Virus record (IMG/VR): IMGVR_UViG_3300002835_000017
DNA: 64,000 nucleotides
Origin: a virus
Direction: 5' to 3' (one strand)
Made by a program: the position numbers and the translations under genes. Shown one piece after another: positions 1,899 through 63,860 of this stretch. Every line of letters begins with the position of its first letter. Positions within the stretch are counted from its first letter, which is position 1. The notes beneath the pieces are model-generated. The model was not told the DNA's origin, ran no database searches, and was given only the letters and a program-made list of their open reading frames with translations.

Positions 1899-3365
1899 TT
1901 ATTTTAAACAATGAACATTTATTAATTTATGTTTATCGGAAATGATTTTAGTGCTAATATGTTTATACTTCATATTATTTATACCATCTTTTTTATAATC
2001 AATCTTACCCTGTTGCATTTCTAATACATATCTTCTTTCATTTCTAGCCGTTGTTTCTCCTTTAGCCCATTTATCAACACCTCCAACTTTAATTAACCCC
2101 TCGGTTTCATGTGGTAGACAGAAAAATTTACCATCTCTTCTATGCGGTAATATTACATGAGGTATTTGTATTTCTCTTTCCTCAATACTAACATTATACA
2201 TTACACCATCATTTACTTCAGCCTGGTCTATTACAAATTTACCATCAGTTATTTCATCAAAATTATAATGTAATATTAAACCATCCGTTGAATATTCTTT
2301 ATGTAATTTTGAAACATCTTCACTTGATAATGCTCTATTCCATAATTTAATATCGGCAATTTCACCTTTAAAAAAGGCGTGTGGTTCAAATGGTTCTACG
2401 GTAGATGTGTGTCCTATGTAAAATGGCTCTGTACCATATCTTTTTAAATTATAGTTGTATTCAACTGGAGATTGTGTGCCAGTTCCGTTTCTAGCATCAC
2501 TTTCATTTCCATTCAAATAAAAATGCATTTTCTTTTCTAAATCATCAACTACCATTGTTACCCAAGTCCACTCACCTTCATAACGCTTGAACCATTGATA
2601 TATGTGTTCTCTGTGTGAGTTCCACATCATACCAGTATATGCTCTACTGTTATTAAAGGATAATCCCCAATCATAACCTGGTTTTCTGAATATAGGATAT
2701 TCAACAAATTTTCTTTCAGTATCACCAATTAACCAAATAGGAACTTTTTCTATTTGTTGTTCTGCTTTTACTAATACTGAAATCGTATGTGAATTAGATA
2801 TTGCCATTCTAGTTTGTTCTGTGGATGGTATTTTAATATAAGATTGCTTACCATCAAATAGTGCCACATTTTTTACTTTAGCAAAATCAATAGTTTGTTT
2901 ATCCACATATCCTTCCATAACACATCTCCAAAAAAGGTCATCATCTTCCATACCCCAATCCCAATAGTCATTTGAATAACCATTAGTTGCTAAAACTTGT
3001 TCTTTTGTAAAAACAACCGCACCACCAAAGTATTCCTGATATTTTAATTGATAATCAGATTGTGAAATACGAACTGCAATGTGTTGTGGATTTTCTTCTG
3101 GATATGAATAATCACAACTATCATCTTCAGGCACCATATCAATATCATGCCAAACAATATAATCACATCCATCATCAATTGCGTGCTTTGCAGCAATATT
3201 TTTCATCAATCCTCTGTTGAATAAATATTCATCACATTGATGTGCAATATAAATGGTATGGTCAATTCCTTTCTTTGTTAAGAAATTAGTAACCCAAGGA
3301 ACAAATTTATTCATGTGTTCCTCTCTGTTTCTATATGGTACGCAAACACCTAACTTATGTCCCAT
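1899..3365 (-). CDS. GT7 beta-1,4-galactosyltransferase-like glycosyltransferase with inserted LamG domain
   Basis: VPYRNR, FNRG, WHDIDM (DxD), YFGG, NGYSNDYWDWGMEDDDL; LamG FYLNG..FYIG..FKGEIADIKLWNRALS; GT7 C-terminal part GKFFCLPH..DGINNMKY. Confidence 0.88.
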   Translation of the reverse strand: MGHKLGVCVPYRNREEHMNKFVPWVTNFLTKKGIDHTIYIAHQCDEYLFNRGLMKNIAAKHAIDDGCDYIVWHDIDMVPEDDSCDYSYPEENPQHIAVRISQSDYQLKYQEYFGGAVVFTKEQVLATNGYSNDYWDWGMEDDDLFWRCVMEGYVDKQTIDFAKVKNVALFDGKQSYIKIPSTEQTRMAISNSHTISVLVKAEQQIEKVPIWLIGDTERKFVEYPIFRKPGYDWGLSFNNSRAYTGMMWNSHREHIYQWFKRYEGEWTWVTMVVDDLEKKMHFYLNGNESDARNGTGTQSPVEYNYNLKRYGTEPFYIGHTSTVEPFEPHAFFKGEIADIKLWNRALSSEDVSKLHKEYSTDGLILHYNFDEITDGKFVIDQAEVNDGVMYNVSIEEREIQIPHVILPHRRDGKFFCLPHETEGLIKVGGVDKWAKGETTARNERRYVLEMQQGKIDYKKDGINNMKYKHISTKIISDKHKLINVHCLK

Positions 3366-3366
3366 T

Positions 3367-4797
3367 CTACAATAATACCGATAGATGATGATAGTTATTC
3401 ATTGTTACATCATTTAATACTTGATATAAACAACTATTTAAACCATCTTTATCTGTGTTATATAATTTAGTTTTAACTTGATTTAAAAATCTTAATTGGT
3501 TTATACGAGTTTCTCTGTGAACCCAGTTTTTCTCATTCCAACTATTTGTTTTATGAGATAATAATTTAAATAAAGATTTTCTTCTATATGGAACTGCCAT
3601 TTCTCTACCCAATGATTCATGTGATTTTATGAAATGGCAATTGTGTATTTCTCCGTTATTATTATTAAATGATAAATCTAATAAAGTATCTTCTTTATAG
3701 AATTTAAAATCATAATATAATTGTAAATGTTGTGCGGATTTATAACCTCTAAAATTTTCTAATAAAGAATTTTCTAAAACATTGTCAGATAATATTTCAA
3801 TTTCTTTATCTTTTAATTTACAATCATATATTGCAAATTCGGAAATCATTCCATAAAAAAAGTTTTGATTAGAATCTCTTTCTGGTGAACCAACTCCTAA
3901 ATAAAAATATTCTTCATTTGAATAATCTTTAGGTGCATGTTTTACTTTTTCAGTATTAACTAACGTACCATCTTTATAAAAAGAAATTTGGTTTTTTTCA
4001 TAATCAAAAGTTAAACAGATTTGAGTAAAATGATTAGTTAATATTTCTGAATTAATAGAAGTGCAGTTATCAGTATTATCCCAAAAATCTATTTTATATC
4101 TTCTAAATGAATTATAACTTATATTTGTATCATAACCAGGTATAGAAAATACAGTATACTCATCATAATCATTATTTGGGTTAGATGTTATTTCATCTGG
4201 CTTAAATGTTATTAATATTGTAGTATCCTTTTCAAAATCTAATAATTCTTTTTTTGGTATTTTTATATAAGAATCGTTTCCACTAAATGATAATCCGTAT
4301 AATTTTTTGGTTTCATTTTTACCAATTATTTTAGAATCTAATGGAATTTTTTTCTGATTTACTCTAAATAAAAGGTCGTCATCTTCAAATCCCCATCCCC
4401 AATATAAATTGGAATACCCGTTTATTCGTTCAAATGTATCGGAACTAAACATAGTTACACCACCAAAATAGTCATCAAATGATAAGTTTTTAGATTTATC
4501 ATATTCTAATTCAAAATTAGTTGCAAGATGCATAGGTAATTCAGAATAAGAATAATCAACCTCAATTGGTAACATATCCACATCATGAAATACAACATAA
4601 CCACATCCTAATTCTTTTGCTTTAATATATCCAATATTTAATAACTTTCCTCTATTAAACGGTTTATCATCAGTTTGTTCAACTACAATAATTTCGTGTT
4701 TAATTTTTTTGGATTTTAAATATGAAGATGTTATTTCACCGAATCGGGTGAGATGTGATTCTCTATCTCTATATGGTACAATTATTCCTAATTTCAT
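3367..4797 (-). CDS. GT7-like glycosyltransferase with inserted LamG domain (paralogue 2)
   Basis: VPYRDR, PFNRGKLLNIG, FHDVDM, YFGGV, NGYSNLYWGWGFEDDDL; LamG FYKDG..FYGMISEFAIYD; C-terminal LLSH..DGLNSCLY. Confidence 0.88.
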   Translation of the reverse strand: MKLGIIVPYRDRESHLTRFGEITSSYLKSKKIKHEIIVVEQTDDKPFNRGKLLNIGYIKAKELGCGYVVFHDVDMLPIEVDYSYSELPMHLATNFELEYDKSKNLSFDDYFGGVTMFSSDTFERINGYSNLYWGWGFEDDDLLFRVNQKKIPLDSKIIGKNETKKLYGLSFSGNDSYIKIPKKELLDFEKDTTILITFKPDEITSNPNNDYDEYTVFSIPGYDTNISYNSFRRYKIDFWDNTDNCTSINSEILTNHFTQICLTFDYEKNQISFYKDGTLVNTEKVKHAPKDYSNEEYFYLGVGSPERDSNQNFFYGMISEFAIYDCKLKDKEIEILSDNVLENSLLENFRGYKSAQHLQLYYDFKFYKEDTLLDLSFNNNNGEIHNCHFIKSHESLGREMAVPYRRKSLFKLLSHKTNSWNEKNWVHRETRINQLRFLNQVKTKLYNTDKDGLNSCLYQVLNDVTMNNYHHLSVLL

Positions 4798-4802
4798 TTA
4801 GA

Positions 4803-5144
4803 TTATACTTTTTCGATATCTTTTTTAGGTCTTGCTCTACGAGGTGGTGGTAATTCTGCCCCTTCTTCGGTTTGGGCAGGTTCTGTTGGAACATTTCCAG
4901 CAAAAGGTTTTTCTGAATTTGATGATGCACCATTTTCTTTTGCAATATTATAGAATTCATACAGATAATACGCAACTCTATCACTCCACTCTGATTTGTT
5001 AATTTCTTCAAACCAAATAGTAAGTGCATCTAATGAGTTTGCAATTTTTTCTAATGCTTTTACTTTTCTAGTTTCTAACACAACTGATTCTAAATTTTCG
5101 TTTGTAGAAGGTGTTGTATCAGACTGTAACTTAATTTTTGCCAT
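4803..5144 (-). CDS. Hypothetical protein embedded in GT7 array
   Basis: 113 aa ORF tightly packed between GT7 paralogues; helical core and disordered Pro/Arg-rich tail. Confidence 0.6.
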   Translation of the reverse strand: MAKIKLQSDTTPSTNENLESVVLETRKVKALEKIANSLDALTIWFEEINKSEWSDRVAYYLYEFYNIAKENGASSNSEKPFAGNVPTEPAQTEEGAELPPPRRARPKKDIEKV

Positions 5145-5151
5145 TTTATTT

Positions 5152-6609
5152 TTATATTTTAATTTGATGCTTATAAACTCCTGTTTTAATTTCTTCGGTT
5201 GATATTAAATCGTATGATAATGTATTCAAACCAAATTTATCAGTATCTAATATATCAGTTGCAATTTCATAAAAGAAAATATTTTCATTTTCTTCAAATA
5301 TTTCATTTTTTTCTGTCCAATTATAGTTCTCTAATTTAGTAAATTTTTTTGAATTTTCCAAGATTTGAAACCGTCCATTTGATTGTTCTGGCATATCAAA
5401 TTCATAAGATAAATTCAATTCTTCGGAATATGTTTCCTGATGTATTCCAGTTGATACTATTCTTGGATTTGAAAATGTTTTAGAATCATCTACATAAAAA
5501 TCTCCAAATTTTTTATCAAATGGTACATTTATAACCGCTTCAAAATTTGTAGTTATTGTATTGTTTGTTGTTTTGTATCCGTCTGTATATAATTTTATTA
5601 TTTCAGAATCTGCTAACGCGTAATCAAATAATAATAAGTTGGATATTTTGCCACTAAATGAATTTTTAAATGCTAAACTACCAATCCATAAATCTTTTCC
5701 TTTAAAATCCATTAAATGTTTTGGTAATTTATCTAATGTTTGCACAATTTTACCATCAACATATAAACTGGCTTTTTTCTTATCCATATCAACCTTTAAT
5801 GATAGGTTTATCCATTGATTGGCATGAGATTTATGTGGATACCACATTTGATGTAAATTATTATCATCACTCCACAATTGAACTACAATTGCTTCATTTT
5901 TCATAATAAAAATTCCCATATCATATCCTTGTTTTCCAATAATACACCCATTATTTGATTGGTTGTTATTGATAAAAACATTCATTGATATTGTAAATGA
6001 ATCTTCAAAAATATAATCGGTTGTTTTATTTGCTCTTACAAATACACAATTATTTTCATTTGATTCAAACGGATATATTGTTTTTTTAATGTATTTATTT
6101 ACCTCTTTTACATCTGTTAAAACATGCGGTTTATATATATTTTTAGTAAAAAATCTTTTTGCAGATAATAATTTGTGTTTTTTTAATCTATACAAAAAAT
6201 CTATCCAATGAAAAGAACCTCCCCAATAATCATTACTAAATCCGTTTGCTTCGAAGAAATTTTCTTTTGTAATTTTAAAAGCACCACCTACCCAATGTGG
6301 ATATGGTTTTAAATTTGGACAAAGGTGAGTTGGATAGTATTCAAAATCGTAATTGCACGATTCCTGTTTAGGTAAAATATCTATATCATGGAATACATAA
6401 TAATCTGAACGATTTTGTGTTATGGATGCACCAATATTGCATAACTTTCCATAATTGAAATAAACATCTGCATCAATTTGTTCTATGAAATGAATTTCGT
6501 AATCCGTTTTATCTTTTAAAAAGTATTCCATGTGACCCACAAAGGTATATAGGTCTTGTAAACGATTGGAGTACGGTACTATAATTGATAACTTTTTATT
6601 GTTCATCAT
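5152..6609 (-). CDS. GT7-LamG paralogue 3 with degenerate catalytic motif (possible pseudoenzyme)
   Basis: VPY, FNYGKLCNIG and FHDIDI retained, but NGFSNDYWGGSFHWIDF replaces WGWGxEDDD; LamG LYVDG..LWIG..FSGKISNL; FGLNTLSY tail. Confidence 0.8.
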   Translation of the reverse strand: MMNNKKLSIIVPYSNRLQDLYTFVGHMEYFLKDKTDYEIHFIEQIDADVYFNYGKLCNIGASITQNRSDYYVFHDIDILPKQESCNYDFEYYPTHLCPNLKPYPHWVGGAFKITKENFFEANGFSNDYWGGSFHWIDFLYRLKKHKLLSAKRFFTKNIYKPHVLTDVKEVNKYIKKTIYPFESNENNCVFVRANKTTDYIFEDSFTISMNVFINNNQSNNGCIIGKQGYDMGIFIMKNEAIVVQLWSDDNNLHQMWYPHKSHANQWINLSLKVDMDKKKASLYVDGKIVQTLDKLPKHLMDFKGKDLWIGSLAFKNSFSGKISNLLLFDYALADSEIIKLYTDGYKTTNNTITTNFEAVINVPFDKKFGDFYVDDSKTFSNPRIVSTGIHQETYSEELNLSYEFDMPEQSNGRFQILENSKKFTKLENYNWTEKNEIFEENENIFFYEIATDILDTDKFGLNTLSYDLISTEEIKTGVYKHQIKI

Positions 6610-18934: not shown

Positions 18935-19108
18935 ATGAAATACGCGATGTTACAAATAAAAAAAGAAACCCACGAACTTCTCAAAAATTATTGTGAAGAA
19001 CATGGGTTTAAAATGGGAAGTTTAGTAGAAAACTTAATTAAAAAACATATTGGAGTTCCTAAAATTCAAAACGGTGTGTTAAAAGCAGATAAAATTAAAT
19101 CTTTCTAA
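18935..19108 (+). CDS. Small ribbon-helix-helix-like DNA-binding protein (57 aa; absent from ORF track)
   Basis: MKYAMLQIKKETHELLKNYCEEHGFKMGSLVENLIKKHI: beta-strand, helix, G turn, helix. Confidence 0.7.
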   Translation: MKYAMLQIKKETHELLKNYCEEHGFKMGSLVENLIKKHIGVPKIQNGVLKADKIKSF

Positions 19109-22800: not shown

Positions 22801-22976
22801 GATAATTCCAATTTAGCATGAGCAATATCTCCTGCTAAATAAATGATTGAATCTTCCGTACCTCTTTTACGAATCTCCTCAAACATTTTTTCAAACACTT
22901 GCCGATACTCATTGTGTCTTTTCACATTACGGATGTGTATATCTGCAATATGATAAATCTTTTTTAATCTACTCAT
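19818..22976 (-). CDS. Fused Mre11/SbcD nuclease - Rad50/SbcC ATPase (gp47-gp46-like recombination nuclease)
   Basis: ADIH, GDIAH, GNHD, GDIH; Walker A APNAAGKS; zinc hook CEFC; signature CSGME; Walker B LVIDEGFGTLD; ISH. Confidence 0.93.
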   Translation of the reverse strand: MSRLKKIYHIADIHIRNVKRHNEYRQVFEKMFEEIRKRGTEDSIIYLAGDIAHAKLELSPELVREISWLFTECSKHCETILITGNHDCNMNNSDRLDVLTPIVEALNLPNFTYLKDTQVYGIGGVDFGVFSIFDRKENWPKGNTLSSNKKIALFHGPVDNSQTDIGYTVSSRHFTTEMFDGYDLALLGDIHKRQTMISPSGCKIVYAGSLIQQNFGETLDKHGFLVWDLDSMKYEEVDIQNDYGYYTMDVDNGKVPIVTDMPKKPRLRVRLSNTDSADTKKVMAEIKMRYGIEDFTIIRTDSLSKSKTGDRLNKLDFEDISDINYQNSLINEYIERMMPFVVPEDLKGLELINRDINSRIVQDDIQRNIQWKPIRFEFSNMFSYGEKNKIDFTKLNGLVGLFAPNAAGKSSLFDAVSFCLYDKSSRAYKASNILNNRKTEFDCTLYFQIDGVDYGIQRTAKTINKGKNVKVDVQFWRQDGDTKTSLNGTERRDTNQIIEQYVGKYEDFVLTALSLQGNNALFIDKSQSERKDLLAQFMGLTIFDKLYDTATEDIREVSVLIKNFKKTDFTTELAEKGKELIEKKSQLKSLETLLNNKNIEVTDLNDKIVGLSRELTPIDSNLDLPKLELSKTNLKTQIENLYKEYNTKENKIIECSTILTEVSHSLVNNKTFKVEEVDVDIETVYSKYISIKNEVLEAENSYQKLKYIEETLNEKILHLEEHKYDPNCEFCCDNVFVKDAINAKDELVILKNKLNTSKNIVNSIQFKLNTLDGVDTQYSEYNELKNTYSKSKIVLEKTEVELDALKTKEQLLENQLNTINENINKYYENEDTISKNKQIESVISELNKTKNNIGIEINKLNKDITNLNGSISSISSFIEDIKQKMNDVKVLEEKNRLYTYYLDAVKRDGIPYELISKALPVIENEVNNILAQVVDFGVTMEMDGKSINAKIVYDDQEWGLEMCSGMEKFVSGLAIRVALINVCNLPRPNFLVIDEGFGTLDSDNLSSLFMMMQYLKTQFDFIWIISHLEQMRDIVDGLIEIKKENGYSKINF

Positions 22977-23914
22977 AAACTATTTATTTTATTTAATAGT
23001 AATTCTTCCGAAGTAAATTCTTTAGTTTTATTTAGTTCTTCGTAGAATTTTTCATACCCCATATCTGCGGCATCTTTATCTTTCAAATACATCATTTTAA
23101 CTTGAATCCCATTTTTTCTAAAGTATTCTGCAGCTTTTAATGCGTCAGTCATTGCATCGTTATCTAATGATATAATAATGTTGCTTACTCCACTCATAAA
23201 GATTTTTTCAACCAATTGTTTTGATGGAAACTTACCTAAAAGTGGAATTGCATTTCTTTTAATTGTAATTGCATCAAATACACCTTCACATAATATAATT
23301 GGCTCATCCCAATTTATCTGTGATTCTAAACAAATTATATTTTTACTGATTGGTGGGTTTTTATATTTCATCTTCTCATCTGTATAATAAGAACGAGAAA
23401 CAAAATAGTTTAGTGAACCTTCTAAACTATAAGATGGTATAATTATTCTTCTACTATACAATCCATCTTTACAATAACCAATATTGTATTTAACAATTTC
23501 CTTCATACCAATTCCTCTTTGAGAAAGATAGAACATAGCATGTTTATATTCTGGATTGAATCCTTTTGGTTCTTCTGCTAATGAAATAAATTCTTTTGGA
23601 AGTTGTATAAATACTCGAGTTTCTGCATCTTCTTGTTGTGGTGTCCAATTACTATCTCCGTATATTTCTCTAATTATTGATATGGTTTTTCTATCCACAT
23701 CCAATTTACGAAGTAATGATGTTAATTTTTTACCACCACTATTACAAGTCCAACAATGCCACTTTTGAGTTTCAGTATTTACTTGTAATTTGGGTTTATG
23801 GTGGTTACAAAAAGGGCAATAAAAGGCCAATTCATTACCTTTCAAATAATTATATGTACCCAACACATTCGATAGTGTGGTTGTAACGAGATTTTTATCA
23901 GTTTGATTCAACAC
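22973..23914 (-). CDS. DNA primase (Zn finger + TOPRIM), GTG start
   Basis: CPFC..HCWTC, YLSQRGI, RIIIP, KYKNPP, CEGVFDA, LDND, KDAAD. Confidence 0.9.
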   Translation of the reverse strand: MLNQTDKNLVTTTLSNVLGTYNYLKGNELAFYCPFCNHHKPKLQVNTETQKWHCWTCNSGGKKLTSLLRKLDVDRKTISIIREIYGDSNWTPQQEDAETRVFIQLPKEFISLAEEPKGFNPEYKHAMFYLSQRGIGMKEIVKYNIGYCKDGLYSRRIIIPSYSLEGSLNYFVSRSYYTDEKMKYKNPPISKNIICLESQINWDEPIILCEGVFDAITIKRNAIPLLGKFPSKQLVEKIFMSGVSNIIISLDNDAMTDALKAAEYFRKNGIQVKMMYLKDKDAADMGYEKFYEELNKTKEFTSEELLLNKINSL

Positions 23915-45540: not shown

Positions 45541-45883
45541 TTGAATATATTTCTCCTTTTCTAATTTTAGTACCACTTATTTCAGCAATTTCTGTTGGTG
45601 GTTCATGATATATTACATCATATCCTACACCTCTACCATAGTTTACTGATTCAATATCAGGAATAATAGATATATGAATTTGATTCCAATTTTCTTGAAA
45701 GAATGGTTCTTTTGTTAATTCAATCATTACCTGTTGGGCAGTTTTGGGGTTGTTTTCATCTACATCCACATCTCTAATTGCCACCCAAACATTCTTTCCC
45801 TTTTCAAGTTGTTGATTGATTAACCATTCATGTCCTTTGTGCCAATTCTGCCATCTTCCGATGTATAGTGCGTACTTTTTCAT
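45524..45883 (-). CDS. HxGH nucleotidyltransferase (cytidyltransferase-like)
   Basis: IGRWQNWHKGH, ISGTKIR. Confidence 0.8.
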   Translation of the reverse strand: MKKYALYIGRWQNWHKGHEWLINQQLEKGKNVWVAIRDVDVDENNPKTAQQVMIELTKEPFFQENWNQIHISIIPDIESVNYGRGVGYDVIYHEPPTEIAEISGTKIRKGEIYSNGSTT

Positions 45884-46779
45884 AACATTGTTTTTATAAA
45901 TGGTAATATTGCTAATTCTTTTCCTTTTGCTTCAACCATAATGTCCACATCCAACTCGTATGTATTGGGGAGGGCATTAATATACACCGAATGGGCTTGT
46001 GGTTTTTCTTTTGGATTATTTTCATGTAATGCTTTTGATTCTGAATAATGAACTTCTTGTATAATACCTTTTGGCCAAGTTGTGGCAGCAAGTTTAAGAG
46101 CTTCTTCTTCGGTTAACCCACCCGTACAAAATTGGTGATGATGGTAATCAAATACAATAGGAATACCTGTTCGTTCGTAGATATACATCAAATCTTTTAC
46201 GGAATACATAGAAGCCTTATCATCATTCTCCAATGTCAATCGTTTTTGTACGCTTGGAGAGAGTCTTTTGAAATTTGTAATCAATCTATCCATCGCAGAT
46301 TGTTTATCTCCGTATACCCCATTACAATGGATATTAATATTGTTGTAATGGGTTTTAGATAACCCCATAAGGTCAAATATCTTACCATGTAATTCTAAAT
46401 CAGCAAAAGTTTTCTGAATAACTTCTTCGTTGGGTGAAGGGAGCACATTGAATGGGCCAGGATGAGAATTAATACGGATATTATGAAATTTGGCAAAATC
46501 ACCTGCTTTCTTTAACTCCGATTTAATTTCTTTGTAATCTTTTAGTTGGGTTAAATCCAAACCATCACCCCACGGAATAATAGTGGATGATAAACGAAAA
46601 AAATTGATATTATGGATACGATTCCATTCTAATATCTTAATAATATCTTTGGCATTTGCTAACGCCAACTCCGAAACGTAATCCAAGCCTTTGGCATTGA
46701 ATGTTTTCTTCACCATTGAACGATTTGTGGTAACCTTGTTACCCATCGACATATTAATACACGCATATCCTATATTCAT
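45880..46779 (-). CDS. uvsE: UV DNA damage endonuclease
   Basis: IGYACIN, FFRLSS, HPGPF, LENDD, FDYHHH, HYSES, EAKGKE. Confidence 0.93.
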   Translation of the reverse strand: MNIGYACINMSMGNKVTTNRSMVKKTFNAKGLDYVSELALANAKDIIKILEWNRIHNINFFRLSSTIIPWGDGLDLTQLKDYKEIKSELKKAGDFAKFHNIRINSHPGPFNVLPSPNEEVIQKTFADLELHGKIFDLMGLSKTHYNNINIHCNGVYGDKQSAMDRLITNFKRLSPSVQKRLTLENDDKASMYSVKDLMYIYERTGIPIVFDYHHHQFCTGGLTEEEALKLAATTWPKGIIQEVHYSESKALHENNPKEKPQAHSVYINALPNTYELDVDIMVEAKGKELAILPFIKTML

Positions 46780-62821: not shown

Positions 62822-63013
62822 TTACCCCAAAACTTCTTTCAACATTCGAATAGCTGCTCTTAATTCGGTTAACCTCTCGCTCGCGGCGTACTTTGGTTTA
62901 CCATCTCTCATTACCCTAATTCTATTAACGAGGACAGACTCTGCACTCTCTAATACTATAAGGGCTTCATGCCTACGGGTGAGGACTTCTTCTACTTCTA
63001 TAAAGTTGTTCAT
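62822..63013 (-). CDS. Small early hypothetical protein (start revised to MNNF)
   Basis: 63 aa ending LRAAIRMLKEVLG, followed by a terminator. Confidence 0.55.
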   Translation of the reverse strand: MNNFIEVEEVLTRRHEALIVLESAESVLVNRIRVMRDGKPKYAASERLTELRAAIRMLKEVLG

Positions 63014-63053
63014 AATTAAGTATATTATATTTTGTATGTTTTTCAAAAACAAT

Positions 63054-63083
63054 AAAGGTGGCAGTCAGAAACCACCACCTTTT
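63054..63083. terminator. Hairpin, possibly a bidirectional terminator
   Basis: AAAGGTGG..CCACCTTT. Confidence 0.5.
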
Positions 63084-63151
63084 AGGCCTAGCTCATAGTG
63101 TAATAAGAATTGTATTTAAATCGAGAATAACCAGTTATATGAGCTAACCTA

Positions 63152-63193
63152 GAGTGGAGTGGGGATTCGAACCCCAGCTTACCTCTCTCCACT
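63152..63193 (-). ncRNA. tRNA-like mini-element (acceptor stem + T-arm; no D stem or anticodon arm)
   Basis: AGTGGAG-AGAGGTAAGC-TGGGG-TTCGAAT-CCCCA-CTCCACT-C. Confidence 0.6.
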
Positions 63194-63366
63194 TACTCTA
63201 CTACTGGTTGTGCTACAGGAGCTTCAGCAGCGGTAGTATCTACTGTAGTTACTGCGGTTGTATCTACTGCTACTGCAGTCGAGTCCGTAGTACCTTCTGT
63301 AGTACCCTTACCTCCACATGCTACCATAAGGGATGCGAGGGCTAACATTGCGATTACTTTTTTCAT
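63193..63366 (-). CDS. Small Bacteroidota-type lipoprotein (start revised to MKKV)
   Basis: MKKVIAMLALASLMVA-C lipobox; T/A/D-rich tail with DST, DTT, DTT. Confidence 0.8.
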   Translation of the reverse strand: MKKVIAMLALASLMVACGGKGTTEGTTDSTAVAVDTTAVTTVDTTAAEAPVAQPVVE

Positions 63367-63430
63367 CTTGTTATTAGTTTGTATAGTGAGTCCGTTAATA
63401 TAGGTGGTACTCATTACCTATTTGAGATTA

Positions 63431-63461
63431 CAAATATACGAAGAATATTTCACATTTCCAA
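63431..63461 (-). promoter_or_regulatory. Promoter TTGG-N19-TATATTTG
   Basis: Perfect TAnnTTTG. Confidence 0.7.
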
Positions 63462-63464
63462 GAC

Positions 63465-63860
63465 CTATGTTCTGAAATGTGCATTGAATTGGGAGTTTGA
63501 TTTCAATCTATGTGCCCACCCATTGGAACGCTTACTATAGGTAGGGGTGATTTTAGCGTTTAGGCTCATATTGGATATCTGTCCGATACCATCCCACGAG
63601 GATTCCCACTTAATAGGGAGTACACCTTCTTTAAGGAATATACTAGTCAGATGTGGGTTAACATAAGGTGAGTCCACCACACCAGTGAATGCGATATCTT
63701 GTGTAGATACCTTACGGAAGATGTTCTTACGATTCTCCTTATCTACCTCCATAAACATCGTAGTTCTGGAGTTTGCCTTAATCAATTTAAGGACTTTACT
63801 AGCGACCTTGCCATCTTTGCCGACCACTACATTGACCATTTGTCCAACTGGTATTGCCAT
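63465..63860 (-). CDS. Early hypothetical protein
   Basis: 131 aa; promoter TTGG-N19-TATATTTA at 63880-63910. Confidence 0.6.
   Translation of the reverse strand: MAIPVGQMVNVVVGKDGKVASKVLKLIKANSRTTMFMEVDKENRKNIFRKVSTQDIAFTGVVDSPYVNPHLTSIFLKEGVLPIKWESSWDGIGQISNMSLNAKITPTYSKRSNGWAHRLKSNSQFNAHFRT

Follow-up and report, generated by a model that had tools for sequence, protein, structure and literature searches.

The stretch of DNA analysed here (the window) is 64,000 nt of a virus genome, IMG/VR record IMGVR_UViG_3300002835_000017, and its sequence was found in 14 freshwater or lake DNA runs. The G+C content is about 30%, and 46 of the 50 ORFs of ≥150 aa, including every large one, lie on the minus strand. 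The genes of the window include a baseplate-wedge-like gene, a primase-like gene, a UvdE gene, and many tailoring enzymes. The primase-like gene at 22973-23914 (-) encodes a DnaG-like protein with a CHC2 zinc finger and a Toprim domain, the UvdE-type UV-damage endonuclease is encoded at 45880-46779 (-; 218 bits), and each of three adjacent paralogues of 476-488 aa at 1899-6609 (-) contains both a glycosyltransferase family 7 domain and a concanavalin/LamG-like domain. A phage of a Bacteroidota host would fit the TAnnTTTG box (63438-63431), the lack of Shine-Dalgarno sequences, and the lipobox.

The locus lies near the end of the window and is read on the minus strand. A small lipoprotein ORF of 57 aa occupies 63193..63366 (ATG at 63366, TAA at 63195-63193); its product starts with MKKVIAML and has an ACGG lipobox and a Thr/Ala/Val/Asp-rich tail. 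Upstream of this gene, TATATTTG at 63431..63438 (-) matches the Bacteroidota -7 box TAnnTTTG and is predicted to act as the promoter. The next gene downstream encodes 63 aa at 62822..63013 (-; ATG at 63013). On the other side of the promoter, a 131-aa ORF at 63465-63860 (-) is missing from the related contig L034, where its window flanks adjoin. A repeated promoter-like string, TTCGTATATTT..., is present at both of its junctions and suggests a gene-cassette indel. Another 32 viral contigs contain homologues.

Part of the window is contained in six metatranscriptome runs, and the contigs of four of these, from four lake or river studies, cover only 63190-63410. The RNA contigs begin at 63404-63410, just downstream of the TAnnTTTG box. 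Because the lipoprotein gene is present in metatranscriptome contigs of four studies, the phage group is transcriptionally active in nature. No metatranscriptome contig was found over 63189-62800, a gap that carries no weight, small or structured RNAs being easily lost and the contigs being of low depth.

Between the two genes lies a 41-nt tRNA-like element, the top half of a tRNA (acceptor stem and T arm; hereafter mini-tRNA), which runs on the minus strand from A 63193 to T 63153 (63153..63193). It consists of the 5' acceptor strand AGTGGAG (63193-63187), the linker AGAGGTAAGC (63186-63177) with GG at 63183-63182, the T stem TGGGG (63176-63172), the T loop TTCGAAT (63171-63165), the 3' strand of the T stem CCCCA (63164-63160), and the 3' acceptor strand CTCCACT (63159-63153). 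Only 10 nt therefore separate the acceptor stem from the T stem. The element is followed by C 63152 and then TAGG, so CCA is not encoded. A first-pass annotation of the window had described the same anatomy, with a perfect 7-bp acceptor stem, a 5-bp T stem, the TTCGAAT loop, the 10-nt linker, and no CCA. All of this was confirmed, as was the position of the first base as the last A of the TAA stop (63195-63193); the element does lie in the range first given (63152-63195), which is 3 nt wider than the 41 nt of the element itself.

The isolated 42-mer gave the described fold at -16.0 kcal/mol. The entire 158-nt 3' UTR folded into the minihelix, a long stem, and a terminator at -49.2 kcal/mol (z = -3.86), an energy equalled in 0 of 200 shuffles; in a 66-nt context, a competing register-shifted hairpin was obtained and z was -0.95. 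ARAGORN called no tRNA and no tmRNA in the whole 64-kb window. The element does not have the D arm, anticodon arm, and 7-nt anticodon loop of a canonical tRNA gene, and it had no Rfam tRNA match. The best Rfam match was mascRNA-menRNA (RF01684) at 23.2 bits, against a gathering score of 42.5 (E = 0.064), so the element is not a member of that family. For the Rfam tmRNA model, only 18 nt of the T arm matched (13 bits against a gathering score of 47), and the element does not qualify as a tmRNA tRNA-like domain. Such scans and a covariation analysis had been proposed in the first-pass annotation; the anatomy and the covariation (see below) held, ARAGORN called nothing, and every Rfam match stayed below threshold. 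A scan of the 64 kb for a T arm with a 7-bp acceptor stem revealed no other such element, and a second minihelix candidate at 19007 proved to be an ordinary terminator hairpin.

In the fold of the 3' UTR, the mini-tRNA is separated by a sole unpaired base, C74 (63152), from a trailer stem-loop at 63083..63151 (-). The strands of its long stem, P1, are at 63151-63138 and 63097-63083, and P1 closes a 40-nt loop in which an invariant GGTTATTCTC occupies 63132-63123. An intrinsic terminator follows at 63044..63082 (-), with a 13-bp hairpin (63082-63054) and then a T-rich run. This conserved trailer RNA, which is the constant partner of the element, was overlooked in the first-pass annotation.

Relatives and the tRNA-Gly origin of the element

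Distant relatives were located via homologues of the 63-aa downstream ORF, which served as a synteny anchor, and a scan for the trailer motif GGTTATTCTC(N)GATTT(N)ACTTTACA yielded 56 viral loci and at least 120 metagenome loci. At least about 180 related phage or metagenome loci share a common gene order: a gene for a small D/S/T-rich protein, the tRNA-like element, the trailer motif, and a terminator. The upstream gene always encodes a small protein whose tail is rich in Asp, Ser, Thr, Ala, and Val; some of these proteins are lipoproteins, and the others have ~105 aa and start with MAKKI. As the distance from the stop codon to the element varies from -1 to 82 nt among the relatives, the overlap with the stop codon, which had been singled out as a trait of the element, is a local compaction and is not conserved.

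The nearest IMG/VR relative (L034/L040) is 82% identical and has the same element, which differs from that of the window at one linker base, at T-loop position 59, and in two acceptor pairs (G-C to G-U and U-A to U-G). In distant relatives, a homologous element occupies the same place; its acceptor strands differ in sequence yet stay complementary. A blastn search with 2 kb around the element against phage GenBank records gave no match, and the exact 23-mer of the T arm and acceptor strand had 0 matches in IMG/VR.

Among the matches listed, most related loci have, at the position of the element, a 72-76-nt tRNA-Gly(UCC/CCC)-like gene or a 99-105-nt version of it. ARAGORN called tRNA-Gly (UCC or CCC) in nine loci (L060, L076, L086, L087, L099, L109, L163, L184, and L187). 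The 82 distinct tRNA-like elements among the matches listed were sorted into four length classes: plain hairpins of 34-35 nt, linker forms of 42-47 nt, which include that of the window, cloverleaf forms of 72-76 nt, and cloverleaf forms of 99-105 nt with a D-loop insert of ~25 nt. The insert of the last class (L132:10248-10348, L061, L066, L068, and ~30 other distinct sequences) can fold into a small hairpin of its own; these forms were not called by ARAGORN, and their best Rfam match was tRNA-Sec at 24 bits, below threshold.

When numbered by homology with the full tRNA-Gly genes, A 63193 is position -1, which pairs with U73, and G 63192 is +1. In the acceptor and T-arm strands that remain, the element is homologous to the full tRNA-Gly-like genes, including A(-1), U73, and C74; A(-1), able to pair with U73, and C74 are present in all tRNA-like elements among the matches listed. 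Of 94 distinct relatives, 92 have C-N-A at positions 74-76 and the other two have CAT, the variants being CTA, CAA, CCA, and CAT, with CCA in seven forms. The helix of the window has lost the 7:66 pair, which leaves it one pair shorter than in the relatives, and has U2:A71 instead of C2:G71.

The element is thus very probably a phage tRNA-Gly(UCC)-like gene that has lost its D arm and anticodon arm. It had first been read as an independent tRNA mimic, with the caveat that a full tRNA in relatives would make it a simple deletion remnant; since most relatives carry a tRNA-Gly-like gene at this position, a deletion remnant it is, the gene being whole at the same spot elsewhere. In L103 (2433-2591), the trailer directly follows the stop codon of the upstream gene and there is no tRNA-like part, and L197 and L201 have the trailer motif with no recognisable tRNA-like element within ~110 nt upstream, so the tRNA-like handle is dispensable in some lineages.

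Selection on the top half and decay of the decoding half

Covariation was assessed in 18 distinct reduced forms (linker or plain hairpin) at seven acceptor and four T-stem positions. Standard pairs made up 97.5% of the stem cells, compared with 83% in column shuffles, and compensatory double changes were found in 8 of the 11 pairs; 0 of 2000 shuffles, which ignore the relatedness of the sequences, reached these values. The helices are nearly wholly different between lineages, and T stems such as GCAAGGG, GCGGGAG, GTGGG, and CCAG each occur with a matching partner. The stems of the reduced forms contain G-U pairs and no A-C pairs; the constraint therefore acts on RNA of the minus strand, that of the element. 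The concern raised at first pass that the stems might not be conserved is thereby removed, and, judged by its retention in relatives and its covarying stems, the element exceeds chance.

The T loop is conserved as well. All 18 reduced forms agree at positions 55-57, with almost no variation at 54 and 58; the loop of one hairpin subclade has become CTCGATA by drift. The D-loop-like GG that had been noted in the linker of the window recurs in seven of the nine distinct linker forms, and the two forms that lack it also lack A58. The GG linker and the T loop would fit a retained D-loop/T-loop elbow.

A weakly resolved tree, built from the short upstream protein, places the linker forms scattered among the full forms, which suggests repeated reduction. 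Its well-supported branches force at least three changes for the linker forms and likewise for the hairpin forms, and the reduction to the top half probably occurred more than once. The canonical anticodon loop CTTCCAG is present in only 31 of 64 distinct full-length forms. In about one third of the full-length forms, position 33 is C, G, or A instead of U, or the anticodon loop has 8 nt; the decoding half is thus in decay in many lineages while the top half is kept. The 8-nt loop, CATACCAG, occurs on a 5-6-bp stem in eight distinct sequences (L066:597-698, L104, L175, L183); loops of this size are known from +1 frameshift suppressor tRNAs.

These patterns bear on whether the element is simply a dying tRNA pseudogene, functionless and recognisable only because the deletion was recent. 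Relatives with the full gene, the total loss of the tRNA-like part in some lineages (L103), the missing ancestral helix pair in the window, and the failure of ARAGORN and Rfam to recognise the element would all be expected of such a remnant. Against it, the reduced forms have diverged at most stem positions with pairing kept by compensatory changes, and several reduced architectures persist, as 18 unique sequences on dozens of contigs from many samples. We regard neutral decay as improbable; by the covariation, the remnant is under selection and not dead.

A role at the DNA level, with the element as an att site that copies the 3' end of a host tRNA for integration, has a negligible probability. 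In its favour, the segment of a host tRNA gene from the T loop to the 3' end is often found in integrative elements in general. On the other side, both acceptor strands are present here and covary with strand-specific G-U pairs, as RNA helix strands do. A search of 185,579 species genomes for a host tRNA twin or attP gave only two matches to the 22-nt T-arm/acceptor string, both unrelated and neither in a tRNA-Gly, and no integrase was seen nearby. The trailer motif had 0 matches in the same 185,579 genomes and so gives no prophage or host clue.

The conserved trailer RNA

Every tRNA-like form precedes the trailer by 1-3 nt, so that the linkage between the two is constant among the loci compared; in the window, P1 starts 1 nt after the acceptor end, with C74 between. 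P1 has 9-14 bp in the relatives and closes an A/U-rich loop of 40-60 nt with the invariant GGTTATTCTC, usually continuing to ...CGATTTACTTTACA (for instance L132:10115-10250), after which a GC-rich hairpin and a T run follow. The hairpin and T run are in the same place in all relatives among the matches listed.

Covariation in the trailer was evaluated with a hand-given structure on a MAFFT alignment of 47 sequences. For P1 and the terminator together, 79% of the cells pair, compared with 66% in shuffled alignments and 34-50% with slid partners, and changes on both sides were found in 17 of the 19 pairs. The covariation score was 0.361 against 0.176, and 0 of 500 shuffles scored as high. RNAalifold on the same alignment, in which the stems are imperfectly aligned, returned no structure, and the longest uninterrupted helix of P1 (mean 8.8 against 6.7 shuffled) does not discriminate in such A/T-rich sequence. 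An Rfam search at E up to 10 with 1.4 kb of the window and with the relative L132 found no trailer family and no ribozyme (theta/HDV-like, hammerhead, twister, pistol, or hatchet). By these comparisons, the GGUUAUUCUC loop, its covarying stem, and the terminator form an uncatalogued RNA motif that is abundant in freshwater phages.

The GGTTATTCTC 10-mer has 33 additional copies in 1.1 Mb of family loci, all on the same strand. Twenty-eight of these belong to a second loop, likewise closed by a stem, which lies a short way upstream of the minihelix and where ~2 would be expected by chance. This second loop (L111, L123, L071, L181, L184, and others) is ~115-145 nt upstream of the main motif on a stem TGGCGG.../...CCGCCA, between the stop codon of the upstream gene and the minihelix or tRNA, so that in these phages two loop modules flank the tRNA-like element.

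Three other roles for the loop were considered. A small ORF in the trailer loop (ATGGTTATT...) was rejected, as conservation does not extend to its ATG and the frame is broken by a 1-nt indel in a region whose nucleotides are themselves conserved. The idea of an antisense seed aimed at neighbouring genes was also rejected, as no reverse-complement copy of the 10-mer (GAGAAUAACC) is present in the 64-kb window or in the 1.1 Mb of family loci. In one closely related subgroup only, the loop can apparently pair with the 5' strand of the terminator, as in a riboswitch-like attenuator.

Candidate processing by host RNase P and RNase Z

Bacterial RNase P, RNase Z, and the CCA-adding enzyme all accept a bare acceptor/T-arm minihelix as a substrate. 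The function best supported here, to which we give an even chance, is that of a phage t-element cut by the RNase P and RNase Z of the host, which would separate the mRNA from the trailer RNA. It agrees with the suggestion at first pass of an mRNA 3'-processing element recognised via its acceptor/T-arm helix. Of the marks of a t-element, the T-arm motif with an acceptor/T-arm fold in a transcript other than a tRNA is present here: the T-arm string GGTTCGAATCC at 63173-63163 fits the motif GGTTCRANYCC within such a fold, and the site is the 3' UTR of a transcribed gene.

In the proposed mechanism, a former tRNA-Gly gene would be situated in the 3' UTR of a small early gene, 1 nt upstream of the structured trailer. 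The gene, the mini-tRNA, and the trailer would be made as a single transcript from the TAnnTTTG promoter to the terminator. Cleavage by host RNase P at the 5' foot of the minihelix would set the mRNA 3' end; a second cut after U73, made by host RNase Z or by some equivalent 3' activity, would release a trailer RNA of ~105 nt and leave a minihelix of 40-41 nt as a by-product. The acceptor/T-arm half would have been kept because the two host enzymes still recognise it, and the GG-containing linker may still form the tRNA elbow. Searches of 36 ORFs with Pfam and PHROGs found no tRNA-processing enzyme, which implies host enzymes for any processing.

Two RNA contigs from two studies end at 63190 and 63191, at the 5' foot of the element (depth 2.5-4.6, contigs only), and one of the two ends adjoins ten letters corresponding to the terminus of an Illumina adapter. 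Both ends fall 2-3 nt within the 5' acceptor strand, off the canonical RNase P site (63193|63192), and so do not prove involvement of RNase P. They are a weak hint of an RNA 3' end or of a block to cDNA synthesis at the foot of the minihelix, and could instead reflect structure-limited cDNA synthesis or low coverage. The start of P1 only 1 nt after the acceptor end could hinder RNase Z, and the dispensability of the handle (L103, L197, and L201) and the drift of the T loop to CTCGATA count against the t-element reading.

The short spacing also fits a different arrangement, in which the mini-tRNA, P1, and the GGUUAUUCUC loop stay together as one uncut ncRNA or 3' UTR of ~150 nt and the tRNA-like end either stabilises the RNA as its terminal helix or docks a tRNA-binding protein. 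The 1-3 nt between the acceptor helix and P1, with C-N-A at positions 74-76, resemble a fixed hinge, the entire 158 nt fold as a compact three-helix RNA, and in the hairpin clade a second GGTTATTCTC stem-loop upstream puts the minihelix between two like modules. A mere stabilising hairpin, however, would need neither the T-loop sequence nor the GG linker, both of which are kept by selection, and, as a weaker point, the two contigs from the upstream mRNA end at the foot of the element and do not run through it. An uncut domain of this kind is therefore considered unlikely, if the foremost of the alternatives.

If the host enzymes do cut, the mini-tRNA itself could be the product: tailed with CCA, it would serve as a glycine acceptor or divert, as a decoy or sponge, a host factor that recognises acceptor ends. 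The acceptor identity set of bacterial tRNA-Gly is U73, G1:C72, C2:G71, and G3:C70, and all four are kept in most relatives; the GG linker could preserve the elbow; and positions 74-76 are C-N-A, with CCA in seven forms. Several observations weigh on the other side. The window has U2:A71 in place of C2:G71, anticodon nucleases and GlyRS, which recognises C35/C36, would find no anticodon loop, and L145-type forms have neither the GG nor A58. The tRNA-like part is missing altogether in L103, and the 20 ORFs tested include no gene for a tRNA-modifying enzyme, a CCA-adding enzyme, or a ligase. We therefore consider such a product very doubtful. The same low probability is given to its fuller version, in which host proteins would bind or charge the CCA-tailed mini-tRNA as a decoy or cofactor, for instance against acceptor-end toxins, and the GGUUAUUCUC-loop RNA would be a co-released second effector. 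Nothing was found in favour of the decoy against tRNA-cleaving defences that had been suggested at first pass, as there is no anticodon loop to cleave and L103 does without the tRNA-like part.

The t-element reading has its closest counterpart in plant mitochondria, where tRNA-like structures in mRNAs are cut by RNase P and RNase Z (Forner et al. 2007, PMC1920247). These t-elements act even where an end is internal to a reading frame, and their borders coincide with transcript ends (PMC1920247). Like them, the phage element is a degenerate, non-decoding tRNA-like structure with the same T-arm motif and an acceptor-like helix, and it is embedded in an mRNA beside or inside the end of a reading frame. 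Unlike them, it belongs to a phage of a Bacteroidota-like host, has 41 nt with no D or anticodon arm, derives from a parent tRNA-Gly gene that is traceable in relatives, and is coupled to a specific conserved downstream RNA; cleavage is established for the plant elements and predicted here.

In the MALAT1 mascRNA and the MEN-beta element, and in the MHV68 tRNA-miRNA transcripts, a tRNA-like fold recruits RNase P and/or RNase Z and sets the ends of the neighbouring RNA. The phage element resembles mascRNA in having RF01684 as its best Rfam match and in its predicted place within a longer transcript. Those examples are eukaryotic or animal-viral, and mascRNA keeps a cloverleaf-like core, whereas the phage element does not score as a member. 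Among phages, T4 RNA C and RNA D are stable, non-decoding, tRNA-derived RNAs that are located in tRNA clusters and keep most of the cloverleaf; the element described here is, in contrast, a lone top half in an mRNA 3' UTR with a conserved partner RNA of its own. Theta (HDV-like) ribozymes adjoin phage tRNA genes on the 3' side and are thought to aid processing of the tRNA 3' end (Kienbeck et al. 2024, PMC10879173). The likeness is limited to the presence of a conserved structured RNA directly 3' of a phage tRNA; the trailer is A/U-rich, with one long stem and a large open loop, and nothing suggests self-cleavage. In the literature searched, neither tRNA punctuation of phage mRNAs nor the use of a top-half tRNA remnant as a phage processing signal is described.

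tRNA punctuation is known from mitochondria and from a few transcripts of eukaryotes and herpesviruses; cleavage at this locus by the RNase P and RNase Z of the host would make it a case in a bacteriophage. The series from full tRNA-Gly through decaying anticodon loops and elbow-keeping mini-tRNAs to bare minihelices displays which half is kept once decoding is unneeded, and this natural series is a ready substrate panel for recognition by RNase P and RNase Z. For annotation, lone T-arm/acceptor hairpins beside phage genes are best treated as tRNA-derived signals, not as random hairpins or att sites.

A degenerate 19-mer from the T arm and acceptor strand matched nine IMG/VR loci, with L040 as the sole relative and unrelated tRNA-like ends in the rest. 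The latter, in the unrelated viral contigs L035, L036, L038/L039, L041, L042, and L043, have GGGGTTCGANTCCCCACTC T-arm/acceptor ends that ARAGORN did not call and may be further non-canonical phage tRNA-like elements.
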